Assembly: GCF_029227855.1 (NCBI RefSeq)
Contig: NZ_CP074356.1
Length of the DNA stretch: 64,000 nt
Direction: 5' to 3' (one strand)
Origin: Escherichia coli
GTDB taxonomy: Bacteria > Pseudomonadota > Gammaproteobacteria > Enterobacterales > Enterobacteriaceae
Position 1 is the stretch's first letter; every line of letters starts with the position of its first letter. Shown piece after piece: positions 9,359-50,486 of this stretch. The notes under the pieces are model-generated. The model saw only the letters and a program-made list of their open reading frames with translations, was not told where the DNA came from and ran no database searches. A program made the position numbers and the translations under genes.

Positions 9359-9536
9359 TCCTCTGATTTACAAAACACGCTAATTCGTCTTCCATAAACC
9401 ATGACGATTAAGATTTATACATAATGCGCTACATTGAGGAATTCCCTGAATGTGACGCAAATCACTTCAAAGAGTGAGCAACAGTCAGTATCATCATGTG
9501 AGTTAAACCCTCGCCGCCTGACGGTGAGGGTTTTCT

Positions 9537-10248
9537 TGTGCACAGAAAACCCCCAGCTAGGCTGGGGGTTCCGGAAAGCTTTCAGCTTTGAGCCTGTTAT
9601 TAAAACCCCTTTTGATTTGTTAAAACACCTTGCGGTCTGGCAACTGCAAGTGTCAAACAAGAAATCAAAAGGGGGTCCCAATGGGGAACGAAAAGAGCTT
9701 AGCGCACACCCGATGGAACTGTAAATATCACATAGTTTTTGCGCCAAAATACCGAAGACAGGTGTTCTACAGAGAGAAGCGTAGAGCAATAGGCAGTATT
9801 TTGAGAAAGCTGTGTGAGTGGAAAAGCGTACGGATTCTGGAAGCTGAATGCTGTGCAGATCATATCCATATGCTTGTGGAGATCCCGCCTAAAATGAGCG
9901 TATCCGGGTTTATGGGATATCTGAAAGGGAAAAGCAGTCTGATGCTTTACGAGCAGTTTGGTGATTTGAAATTCAAATACAGGAACAGGGAGTTCTGGTG
10001 CAGAGGGTACTACGTCGATACAGTGGGTAAGAACACGGCGAAGATACAGGATTACACAAAGCACCAGCTTGAAGAGGATAAAATGGGAGAGCAGTTATCG
10101 ATTCCCTATCCGGGCAGCCCGTTTACGGGCCGTAAGTAACGAAGTTGGATGCAAATGTCAGATCGTGTGCGCCTGTTAGGGCGCGGCTGGTAAGAGAGCC
10201 TTATAGGCGCATTTGAAAAACCTCCGGCTATGCCGGAGGATATTTATT
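9537..10248 (+). mobile_element. IS200 copy 1 (IS200/IS605 family), ~712 bp, boundaries approximate (+/- 5 bp)
   Basis: Boundaries set by where the sequence stops matching the reverse complement of copy 2 (48334..49046). Contains a left-end hairpin CCCCCAGC-TAG-GCTGGGGG, a 152-aa tnpA, and a right-end hairpin CCTCCGGC-TAT-GCCGGAGG. No terminal inverted repeats, as expected for this family. Confidence 0.85.
9681..10139 (+). CDS. tnpA: IS200 transposase TnpA (HUH Y1 transposase), 152 aa
   Basis: ORF 9630..10139; start taken at ATG 9681 (MGNEKSLAHTRWNCKYHIVFAPKYRRQVFY...HIHMLVEIPPK), the IS200 TnpA signature. Confidence 0.9.
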   Translation: MGNEKSLAHTRWNCKYHIVFAPKYRRQVFYREKRRAIGSILRKLCEWKSVRILEAECCADHIHMLVEIPPKMSVSGFMGYLKGKSSLMLYEQFGDLKFKYRNREFWCRGYYVDTVGKNTAKIQDYTKHQLEEDKMGEQLSIPYPGSPFTGRK

Positions 10249-42388: not shown

Positions 42389-42487
42389 TGCCGGATGCGG
42401 CGTGAACGCCTTATCCGGCCTACAAAAATCTTGCCAATTCAATATATTGCAGGACCACGTAGGCCTGATAAGCGTAGCGCATCAGGC
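42389..42487. repeat. REP/BIME element (two palindromic units) in the fepA-entD spacer
   Basis: GCCGGATGCGGCGTGAACGCCTTATCCGGCCTAC and GTAGGCCTGATAAGCGTAGCGCATCAGGCA are canonical enterobacterial REP palindromic units. Confidence 0.85.
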
Positions 42488-47035: not shown

Positions 47036-48331
<1,296 letters not shown>

Positions 48332-48333
48332 TT

Positions 48334-49046
48334 AATAAATATCCTCCGGCATAGCCGGAGGTTTTTCAAATGCGCCTATAAGGCTCTCTTACCAGCCGCG
48401 CCCTAACAGGCGCACACGATCTGACATTTGCATCCAACTTCGTTACTTACGGCCCGTAAACGGGCTGCCCGGATAGGGAATCGATAACTGCTCTCCCATT
48501 TTATCCTCTTCAAGCTGGTGCTTTATGTAATCCTGTATCTTCGCCGTGTTCTTACCCACTGTATCGACGTAGTACCCTCTGCACCAGAACTCCCTGTTCC
48601 TGTATTTGAATTTCAAATCACCAAACTGCTCGTAAAGCATCAGACTGCTTTTCCCTTTCAGATATCCCATAAACCCGGATACGCTCATTTTGGGCGGGAT
48701 CTCCACAAGCATATGGATATGATCTGCACAGCATTCAGCTTCCAGAATCCGTACGCTTTTCCACTCACACAGCTTTCTCAAAATACTGCCTATTGCTCTA
48801 CGCTTCTCTCTGTAGAACACCTGTCTTCGGTATTTTGGCGCAAAAACTATGTGATATTTACAGTTCCATCGGGTGTGCGCTAAGCTCTTTTCGTTCCCCA
48901 TTGGGACCCCCTTTTGATTTCTTGTTTGACACTTGCAGTTGCCAGACCGCAAAGTGTTTTAACAAATCAAAAGGGGTTTTAATAACTGGCTCAAAGCTGA
49001 AAGCTTTCCGGAACCCCCAGCCTAGCTGGGGGTTTTCTGTGCACAA
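48334..49046 (-). mobile_element. IS200 copy 2 (IS200/IS605 family), ~713 bp, inverted relative to copy 1; boundaries approximate
   Basis: Reverse complement matches copy 1 over its full length; I saw one mismatch in the noncoding left part plus one TnpA codon difference. Begins 3 bp after the ybdG stop; its other end abuts the pheP terminator hairpin. Confidence 0.85.
48443..48901 (-). CDS. tnpA: IS200 transposase TnpA, 152 aa
   Basis: ORF 48443..48952; start taken at the ATG at 48901 (MGNEKSLAHTRWNCKYHIVFAPKYRR...); differs from copy 1 at one residue (Ile versus Thr in ...KIQDY[I/T]KHQ...). Confidence 0.9.
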   Translation of the reverse strand: MGNEKSLAHTRWNCKYHIVFAPKYRRQVFYREKRRAIGSILRKLCEWKSVRILEAECCADHIHMLVEIPPKMSVSGFMGYLKGKSSLMLYEQFGDLKFKYRNREFWCRGYYVDTVGKNTAKIQDYIKHQLEEDKMGEQLSIPYPGSPFTGRK

Positions 49047-49078
49047 AAAAACCGCTCTCATCGAATGGATGAGAGCGG
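49044..49078 (-). terminator. Rho-independent terminator of pheP (minus strand)
   Basis: CCGCTCTCATC-GAATG-GATGAGAGCGG hairpin followed on the minus strand by a 7-nt U-run; a degenerate REP-like palindrome lies between it and the pheP stop. Confidence 0.65.
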
Positions 49079-49109
49079 ACATCGTTTTGTCGGATGTAGC
49101 GTGAATGCC

Positions 49110-50486
49110 TTATTTCCGACGCAGCGTTTTAAATGCCACAAACAGGAATACAATCCACACCGGCAGCAGGATCGCTGACAAGCGCATATCATCCATCGTG
49201 CACATCAGCAGCAAAATCATGCCGAGGAAGGCAATACAAAGATAGTTGCCGAACGGATAAAGCAGCGCCTTAAACTGTGTTTCACGTCCCTGACGTCGCA
49301 TCGCCGCGCGAAAACGCAGATGCGCCAGGCAGATCATAATCCAGTTCAACAGCAGCGTTGCTACCACCAGCGCCATCAGCAGACCAAACGCTTTTTGCGG
49401 CAGCAGATAGTTGATTAACACCACCAGCGAAGTGATCGCTCCGGAAAGCATCAGCGAGTTAATCGGCACGCCGCGACGGCTGACGCGAGTCAAAAACTTC
49501 GGCGCATTACCCTGCACAGAAAGGCCAAACAGCATGCGGCTGTTAGAGTAAACCCCGCTGTTATACACCGACAACGATGCCACCAGAATGACGAAGTTCA
49601 GCGCAGAAGCCACTACGTTGCTGTCGAGATTATGGAAAATCATCACAAACGGGCTACTGTTAGATTTCACTTCCACCCACGGATAGAGTGCCAGTAAAAC
49701 CACCAGTGAACCGATGTAAAACAGCAGGATGCGATACACCACCTGATTCACTGCTTTAGGGATGCTTTTTTCCGGATCGCGCGCTTCAGCGGCAGTAATC
49801 CCAATCAGTTCCAGACCGCCGAAGGAGAACATAATCACCGCCAGCGATAAAATCAGCCCATTCCAGCCGGTGGCAAAGAAACCACCGTAGCGCCAGAGGT
49901 TGTCGATACTGGCTTTCTCGCCGCCGTGACCAGAAAACAGCAGCCACAGGCCAAAGCCGATCATGCCGATGATCGCCAGCACTTTAATCAGCGCAAACCA
50001 GAACTCGGTTTCGCCATATAAGCGCACGTTCACCAGGTTAACAGCGTTGATGATAATAAAGAAGGCGGCAGCCCAGATCCAGGTAGGAACATCCGGGAAC
50101 CAGTACTGCATATAAATGCCCGCAGCCGTTAGCTCTGCCATCCCCACCAGCACGAACATCACCCAGTAGTTCCAGCCAGAGAGGAAGCCCGCAAACGGTC
50201 CCCAGTATTTATAGGCAAAGTGGGCAAATGAACCGGATACCGGCTCTTCGACCACCATCTCGCCGAGCTGGCGCATAATCAGGAAAGCGATGATCCCGGC
50301 GACGCCGTAGCCCAGCAATACAGCCGGACCCGCCATCTGAATCGCCGGGCCAATGCCAAGAAACAGACCAGTACCAATTGCGCCACCCAGCGCAATCAGT
50401 TGAATATGACGGTTATGTAATCCGCGATGAAGCGTCGGCTCTTGATTCGACGCAGTATCTTCCGATACGGTTGACGCGTTTTTCAC
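49110..50486 (-). CDS. pheP: Phenylalanine-specific permease PheP (APC family), 458 aa
   Basis: ORF 49110..50522; start taken at GTG 50486 (VKNASTVSEDTASNQEPTLHRGLHNRHIQLIALGGAIGTGLF...), as I recall for K-12; the upstream ATG at 50522 would add 12 residues. Confidence 0.9.
   Translation of the reverse strand: MKNASTVSEDTASNQEPTLHRGLHNRHIQLIALGGAIGTGLFLGIGPAIQMAGPAVLLGYGVAGIIAFLIMRQLGEMVVEEPVSGSFAHFAYKYWGPFAGFLSGWNYWVMFVLVGMAELTAAGIYMQYWFPDVPTWIWAAAFFIIINAVNLVNVRLYGETEFWFALIKVLAIIGMIGFGLWLLFSGHGGEKASIDNLWRYGGFFATGWNGLILSLAVIMFSFGGLELIGITAAEARDPEKSIPKAVNQVVYRILLFYIGSLVVLLALYPWVEVKSNSSPFVMIFHNLDSNVVASALNFVILVASLSVYNSGVYSNSRMLFGLSVQGNAPKFLTRVSRRGVPINSLMLSGAITSLVVLINYLLPQKAFGLLMALVVATLLLNWIMICLAHLRFRAAMRRQGRETQFKALLYPFGNYLCIAFLGMILLLMCTMDDMRLSAILLPVWIVFLFVAFKTLRRK

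Follow-up and report, generated by a model that had tools for sequence, protein, structure and literature searches.

The closest described relatives of the sequence studied here are the y-type REP, a substrate of TnpA_REP (RAYT), and the BIME, which consists of two inverted REPs and a linker. A GTAG tetranucleotide immediately 5' of the REP palindrome is essential and tolerates no mutation (PMC8266576). For the y REP, TnpA_REP requires an AA-GC bulge and contacts T11 and G32 (PMC8266576). Accounts of the decay of REPs and BIMEs, and of their variation from one E. coli strain to another, go back to the 1990s. Specifically, presence/absence polymorphism of BIMEs among E. coli strains is attributed to Bachellier et al. 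1997, as cited in PMC2817692. According to the account given in PMC12306157, ribosomes stall and translation is reduced where a REP lies no more than 15 nt from a stop codon (Liang, Rudd and Deutscher 2015).

Insertion sequences are the second point of reference. The established tie between the IS200/IS605 family and REPs is the homology of its transposase with TnpA_REP, not targeting (PMC8266576). In the survey by Tobes and Pareja, the families that target REPs were IS3, IS110, IS4, IS256, and IS5, and IS200 scored 1/25 for REP association, in Salmonella (PMC1525189). In the IS608 model, a guide tetranucleotide at a defined position recognises the cleavage site or the target by pairing (PMC8266576). 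Our literature search returned no explicit target rule for IS200. The closest report is a 2025-26 preprint, in which terminator-like sequences were over-represented upstream of IS200/IS605 elements (bioRxiv 10.1101/2025.07.22.666184), and the IS200 terminator pattern described below is at least partly known already.

Position and make-up of the palindrome

The DNA analysed is a 64,000-nt stretch from E. coli (the window). The original prediction described a degenerate REP-like palindrome at 49079-49109, between the pheP stop and the terminator. Its sequence was quoted exactly, but these coordinates are about 10 nt too low: GTCGGATGTAGCGTGAATGCCTTATTTCCGAC (32 nt) occurs once in the window, at 49089-49120. 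As a y-REP remnant (49089..49120, minus strand), it is supported by its exact location, its alignment to the y core, and its orthology to an intact y REP. Nor does it lie immediately after the pheP stop, as had been claimed, because the stop codon, at 49112..49110 on the minus strand, is inside the palindrome (..CGT CGG AAA TAA = R R K *). The pheP coding sequence (49110..50486, minus strand) encodes 458 aa ending in ..FKTLRRK*, according to the ORF list and the RefSeq annotation of E. coli strain JNEC-KY178, which is 100% identical to the window region over 1 kb.

Read in the pheP sense, the palindrome is GTCGGAAATAAGGCATTCACGCTACATCCGAC, with a 6-bp outer stem (GTCGGA/TCCGAC) and a weakened interior. 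Eleven of its 32 nt (49110-49120) are in the reading frame. The 5' arm of the mRNA hairpin consists of the final 8 coding bases of pheP (C GT CGG AAA; 49113..49120, minus strand). The stop codon TAA (49110..49112, minus strand) corresponds to T11-A12-A13 of the y REP, including the 'AA' of the bulge, as deduced from the translation and the alignment of forms; REP positions are numbered as in PMC8266576. The predicted RNA hairpin has a 6-bp outer and a 3-bp inner stem, versus the 7+4 bp of a REP, and a stability of -9.7 kcal/mol, versus -19.5 kcal/mol for the canonical y REP. No Rfam family matched the palindrome; the only match was STnc490, inside IS200.

Towards lower coordinates, the predicted order of features was upheld, with the palindrome followed by a 10-nt spacer, the terminator, and the left end of IS200 at 49044; only the placement of the palindrome beyond the stop was wrong. 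The spacer (49079..49088, minus strand) separates the palindrome from the terminator and, compared with that of K-12, has lost 13 nt. K-12-like genomes have this segment, CAACCATCCGAAA (about 880 records), as do the BIME forms described below; it is absent from the window-like majority (about 3,600 records), so that the relic hairpin is there 10 nt from the terminator stem. A two-strand scan identified a bidirectional intrinsic terminator (49045..49078), which is common to pheP and the convergent ybdG, a mechanosensitive channel gene (47084..48331, plus strand; ORF list and annotation). It comprises a stem-loop at 49052-49078 and a T7 run at 49045-49051 on the minus strand, with a predicted fold of -19.7 kcal/mol, and is also present in K-12, there without an IS. 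We rejected the palindrome itself as an intrinsic terminator. On the pheP strand it is followed by AAAACGATGT, which contains no T-run, and the scan made no call for it; the real terminator, with its T7, is the hairpin that follows, at 49052-49078.

The resemblance to REPs was assessed first by sequence alone. A blastn-short comparison with the y consensus gave 20/23 identities (E=0.004), the best non-canonical match in the window. Global alignment to the 30-nt y core gave 25/30 identities, with 5 substitutions and one 2-nt insertion, and all five substitutions are C:G>T:A transitions. The similarity that had been predicted is thus present, and by statistics alone it is modest: among Markov-1 simulations of the 64-kb window, 1/40 attained the local score of the palindrome. 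Taken alone, similarity to the y REP is suggestive and moderately above chance.

The units at 42389-42487, which the original prediction called intact and used for comparison, are a y REP and a z1 REP that both match their consensus at 100%. They form a canonical BIME in the fepA-entD spacer (42390..42487), with the y REP at 42390-42423 (CTAC at its plus-strand 3' end) and an inverted z1 REP at 42459-42487. The same BIME is found in K-12 at 610117-610214. The K-12 RefSeq record (NC_000913.3) carries no REP annotation in the pheP-ybdG spacer (603336-603415), which is uninformative because none is given even for the fepA-entD BIME.

Comparison with the features of a REP gives a mixed picture. 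By identity and positional orthology, the palindrome corresponds to the imperfect palindrome of the y consensus (35 nt including GTAG), and the equivalents of T11, A12A13, C27, and G32 are kept. In place of GTAG, however, there is CTGC, which belongs to the pheP codons CTG CGT; the orthologous REPs of strain MS1657 and of E. albertii have GTAG. The AA-GC bulge (A12A13/G26C27) is altered, in that G26 is A and two extra A enlarge the internal loop. Moreover, REPs are extragenic, and this palindrome has about a third of its length, including the stop codon, within pheP. Judged by these features, with GTAG gone and the bulge altered, the palindrome is no longer a functional REP, and the want of GTAG would exclude it as a TnpA_REP substrate.

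Forms of the pheP-ybdG spacer and origin of the relic

Comparison with the pheP-ybdG spacer of K-12, which had been proposed as a check, revealed an identical palindrome and no IS. A different form is found in the E. coli strains MS1657, CUVET21-PYO5, and AST85, in which the spacer is 156 bp long and a 460-aa PheP ends in ..RRKVN*. On the pheP strand, this BIME form contains the stop TAA, 18 nt, TGCCCGATGCGCAAGCTTATCGGGCCTAC (an inverted z1-like REP), and a 16-nt linker. These are followed by GTAG-GTCGGATAAGGCGTTCACGCCGCATCCGAC, a complete tagged y REP, then by AAAACGATG... and the same terminator. The predicted stability of the y REP hairpin of MS1657 is -17.4 kcal/mol. Among 5,426 complete genomes, 849 (about 16%) cover at least 80% of the BIME-form query, and 4,554 (about 84%) cover at least 80% of the K-12/window query. 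The REP part of the pheP BIME has about ten other matching loci per genome, which identifies it as a member of a dispersed family. This locus therefore holds two inverted REPs with a linker in 849 E. coli genomes besides this one, as well as in E. albertii, whereas only part of one unit is left in the window and K-12.

A species scan with PheP as query and one genome per species extended the comparison. The BIME form recurs in E. albertii, which shows RRKVN* and GTAGGCCGGATAAGGCGTTCACGCCGCATCCGAC, and 'Escherichia sp. MOD1-EC7003' has the fused form. In Citrobacter and Salmonella, PheP ends in RRK(A/S)(R/S/H)*, the terminator hairpin follows directly, and there is no REP. A third form occurs in 'E. 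coli' SCPM-O-B-8794, in which RRKAR* is followed by tattatcggttgaa and then TAAGGCGCTCACGCCGCATCCGAC; its pheP-side REP arm is degenerate and its partner REP is missing, an independent truncation of the same REP. The outer stem of the y REP has a C·A mismatch in E. albertii (GCCGGA...TCCGAC) and a compensating C>T in the E. coli BIME forms (GTCGGA...TCCGAC), which changes the predicted stability from -14.3 to -17.4 kcal/mol. Enterobacter, C. sedlakii, and Escherichia sp. ESNIH1 carry their own REP/BIME types downstream of pheP, such as GTAGGCCGGGTAAGGCG..., which in ESNIH1 are arranged as tandem arrays. This variety indicates that REPs specific to particular species have repeatedly colonised the spacer 3' of pheP. 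One further match, contig PYVH01000101.1 ('Marinobacter sp. B9-2'), carries a pheP-ybdG region with a PheP 100% identical to that of the window, and about 120 nt of its pheP 3' end, spacer, and terminator DNA match the window form minus IS200; this region is almost certainly E. coli contamination in a public assembly.

In a MAFFT alignment, a single gap of 82 nt, with conserved flanks, distinguishes the window/K-12 form from the BIME form. The missing 82 nt are GTGAATTAAGC...GTAGGTCGGA (the end also given as TTCTGTAGGTCGGA) and lie between the pheP codon AAA and the REP sequence TAAGGCG. The BIME form thus reads ..CGT AGG AAA / GTG AAT TAA.., and the window/K-12 form reads ..CGT CGG AAA / TAA GGC... 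As a consequence of the loss, PheP is two residues shorter (RRK* versus RRKVN*), and the REP's own TAA serves as the stop codon. Two simple recombination routes were rejected. Deletion between two GTAGG direct repeats would give CGTAGGTCGGATAAGG, and deletion between GTAGGA and GTCGGA would give CGT[A/C]GGATAAGG; neither product matches the observed CGTCGGAAATAAGG.

Deletion forms at several stages of decay survive. In FDAARGOS_1295 the REP interior is fully intact (GGCGTTCACGCCGCATCCGAC, pheP strand), and the predicted stability of this form is -14.4 kcal/mol. Two changes are found in XDL (GGCA...GCCAC) and, in another combination, in N1131, 631, and ECA64 (GGCA...GCCGT), and O145 and SCU-102 carry other, intermediate variants. 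K-12 and the window represent the most decayed state, with three C:G>T:A transitions (GGCATTCACGCTAC). Overall, between one and three such transitions separate the mutated forms from the intact one. The description of a decayed REP unit was therefore right in substance, given an intact y REP at the orthologous site and intermediate states of decay in other strains. Point mutation does account for part of this decay, but the 82-nt deletion also removed GTAG, the pheP-side arm, and the partner REP.

We conclude that the palindrome is very probably the fossil of a y-type REP from a two-unit BIME that lay between pheP and its terminator in ancestral Escherichia. It is the orthology with intact REPs in other strains that makes a REP origin decisive. 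Under the proposed mechanism, the 82-nt deletion would have joined the AAA of pheP to the TAAGG of the REP, which would keep R-R-K and provide an in-frame stop at once. The pheP sequence GTAGGA would then have faced the surviving arm TCCGAC, to which it is complementary at 5/6 positions, and a synonymous AGG>CGG change (A>C) would have perfected the 6-bp stem. Successive transitions would later have weakened the REP interior. The arm at 49113-49120 is, most likely, made of pheP's own codons, which resemble the lost REP arm by chance; BIME-form strains have the same ..LRRK residues, with CGT AGG AAA before VN*.

The order of events, deletion before A>C, is one that we infer. All deletion-form genomes seen have CGG, and the BIME-type forms have AGG or AGA. 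A search of the 5,426 genomes for a post-deletion AGG with an intact loop gave nothing in a single piece that matched better than the K-12 form, and no AGG deletion form was found among them; the intact-loop CGG form was found among the divergent matches. With AGG in place of CGG, the predicted stability of the hairpin is -4.2 kcal/mol.

A second route to the same structure begins with the REP's own arm. The deletion would have joined ..CTG C to GTCGGA-TAAGG, and a later 2-nt insertion (AA) would have restored the stop. This is attractive in that the REP arm of the E. coli BIME forms likewise reads GTCGGA and in that CGG, never AGG, is seen after the deletion. It nevertheless needs a precise 2-nt insertion in addition to the deletion, as well as a coincidence that yields the same R-R-K residues as in BIME-form pheP. 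Its intermediate would bear a frame extension of about 21 aa, and none was found in the 5,426 genomes. We consider this route unlikely and rank it below the single deletion into pheP codons, which is the simplest.

The polarity of the change, with the BIME form as ancestral, is suggested by E. albertii and part of E. coli; the loci compared do not include E. fergusonii, E. marmotae, or E. ruysiae. The deletion form has ancestral-looking ACG CTG codons where the extant BIME forms have ACA TTG, which indicates that it was not derived from the extant BIME haplotype itself. Introgression between E. albertii and E. coli lineages as the source of the shared BIME form, and an 82-nt insertion into a single-REP ancestor instead of a deletion, are both still formally conceivable. 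A chance inverted repeat unrelated to REPs, to which the modest statistics and the one simulated window in 40 would lend some colour, has practically no likelihood left and is ruled out by the comparative data, namely the positional orthology to GTAG-bearing y REPs in other strains and E. albertii and the graded series of intermediates.

IS200 at the shared terminator

The window contains two copies of IS200. Copy 2 (IS200C, 711 bp; 48334..49044, minus strand) was delimited by comparison with the empty site of K-12, annotation, and Rfam, and its boundaries are ambiguous by up to 2 nt owing to T/A runs. Following the anatomy given in PMC4513863, it comprises a left-end hairpin with the art200/STnc490 region (48911-49034, minus strand; Rfam RF01405, full-length, 144.6 bits), tnpA (48443-48901, minus strand), and a right-end hairpin (48343-48361). 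On one side the element borders TAATT, which consists of the ybdG stop and 2 further nt, and on the other the A7/T7 run. Its left end (GTGCACAG...) comes directly after the T7 of the pheP terminator, 44 nt from the palindrome.

The insertion separates ybdG from the terminator that it shares with pheP. The right-end hairpin of the element, CCTCCGGCATAGCCGGAGG followed by TTTTTC (48343-48361, plus strand), was called terminator-like in the ybdG direction and may take the place of the lost ybdG terminator. IS200 is present at the pheP/ybdG terminator in 29/5,426 genomes. The junctions differ between SCU-102 (T6/IS/T, a 1-nt shift) and ECA64 (T7-ATT/IS), a sign that IS200 entered this one T-tract independently at least twice.

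Copy 1 (9538-10248) also abuts a host hairpin with a T-run (9508-9537), and the whole spans 9508..10248 on the plus strand. The host sequence is CCCTCGCCG-cctga-CGGTGAGGG-TTTTCTT. To survey further sites, metagenome contigs were scanned for the exact pattern of the IS200 left end, which gave 102 loci and, together with the window copies, 75 distinct upstream flanks. Every one of these 75 folds into a GC-rich hairpin with a T-rich tail at the left end, in fixed orientation. When the rule was made strict, with a loop of 3-8 nt and no mismatch in a stem of 5 bp or more, 63/75 flanks qualified, compared with 142/20,000 random positions (0.7%) in the same contigs. The last five flank bases are T in 74, 67, 48, 75, and 75 of 75 cases, respectively, which corresponds to TTNTT with the last two T invariant. 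At the pheP locus, this combination of TTNTT after a GC-rich hairpin is found at the terminator and not at the palindrome.

These results bear on the suggestion that the presence of a REP beside IS200 may not be coincidental. According to this explanation, what brought IS200 to the pheP locus was the REP relic or its ancestor. Apart from the distance of 44 nt from palindrome to IS left end, it could appeal to the fact that TnpA_REP and the TnpA of IS200/IS605 elements are homologous HUH enzymes (PMC8266576). However, the IS abuts the T-run of the terminator and not the palindrome, and the relic has no GTAG. Among the IS200 copies compared, a REP nearby was the exception: neither flank of copy 1 holds one, and a clear REP lies within 300 nt at 1/75 sites, whereas 75/75 sites (both window copies and 73 others) are at a hairpin with a T-run. 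The premise that REPs are targets of IS200/IS605 elements is not supported either, as the REP-targeting families are the five named above and IS200 stands at 1/25 (PMC1525189). REP-guided insertion is refuted at the level of association, and we regard it as extremely improbable.

Instead, IS200 would be near the relic owing to insertion at the T-tract of the terminator. REPs and terminators share gene 3' ends, and the terminator thereby explains the proximity of the IS and the relic. A broader proposition, for and against which we see the balance as even, is that IS200-type elements select intrinsic terminators (GC-rich hairpin plus TTNTT) and always insert in one orientation, such that tnpA is read in the same direction as the terminated gene. 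AAAA precedes both IS200 hairpins and, by analogy with the IS608 model, may be a guide that fits a T-tract target. The AAAA guides 5' of the two IS hairpins may pair with the T-tract, and the terminator would mimic the right end of the IS (hairpin plus ATATTTATT). If this pattern reflects an enzymatic preference and not a survivorship filter, it would explain the harmlessness and long-term persistence of IS200. REPs and their relics between stops and terminators would then be occasional bystanders near IS200 sites.

Present role of the relic and comparison with known systems

Today, the relic appears to be near-neutral and to do little, its one concrete contribution being the pheP stop codon. 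It is predicted to be able to form a weak stem-loop (about -10 kcal/mol) in pheP mRNA, 10 nt upstream of the terminator. A functional explanation would be that selection keeps the relic as an RNA stem-loop at the stop codon, which modulates translation termination or protects the 3' region of pheP mRNA. Consistent with this, the outer stem is perfect, and the AGG>CGG change shifts its predicted stability from the weak value given above to that of the present hairpin. The 3' arm CATCCGAC is invariant in seven aligned forms (0/8 sites variable), compared with 9/23 variable positions in the adjacent spacer (P ~0.04), and REPs at most 15 nt from a stop are reported to stall ribosomes (Liang et al. 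2015, via PMC12306157).

This conservation statistic is marginal, however, and based on few sequences, and one arm is coding and constrained anyway. The interior is decaying by successive transitions in different lineages, which suggests relaxed constraint. In addition, the hairpin is half as stable as a real REP, and a 3' stem-loop is available anyway in the strong terminator, 10 nt further downstream. Selection on the stem-loop is, on this evidence, quite improbable, and the near-neutral relic is the reading that we retain.

The palindrome is an ordinary fossil of a known repeat, and its polymorphism is of a known kind. The locus serves as a textbook case, in which the intact BIME, a deletion form with an intact interior, and mutated relics all survive in sequenced genomes, and in which a conserved transporter gene has taken over an internal TAA of the repeat as its stop codon. 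It also illustrates that an unannotated 'REP-like' hairpin at the end of a gene can be a genuine homologue and yet, once GTAG is lost, no longer satisfy the functional definition.

The terminator preference of IS200 is the more notable by-product. The proximity of IS200 and REPs should not be taken as a mechanistic link, with intrinsic terminators as the landing pad. Such a landing pad bears on the persistence of the nearly dormant IS200, and on how terminator-proximal IS200 copies are read in the typing of E. coli, Salmonella, and Yersinia.

Among known systems, the IS200/IS605 family is represented here by a standard IS200C (copy 2), with its left-end terminator hairpin, art200/STnc490, tnpA, and right-end hairpin. 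This copy is not a partner of the REP relic, and its insertion point was set by the terminator T-tract. As in the stop-proximal REPs ascribed to Liang 2015 in PMC12306157, the pheP stem-loop is less than 15 nt from the stop, which it here overlaps. It differs from them in having half the stability of a true REP, and the nearest REP of the ancestral BIME was 18 nt past the stop, outside the 15-nt rule as that source relays it.

With the y-type REP, the TnpA_REP/RAYT substrate, the palindrome shares the loop TTCAC and a location at a gene 3' end, upstream of the terminator. It differs in the lack of GTAG, in a 2-nt expansion by the bulge, and in G26>A and two further transitions that weaken the inner stem. 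As for BIMEs, the ancestral pheP locus was a typical y plus z1-like BIME, of which the window holds a deletion derivative. Unlike a BIME, this derivative retains only part of one unit, and its deletion ends within coding sequence, so that the stop codon of the gene comes from the repeat.
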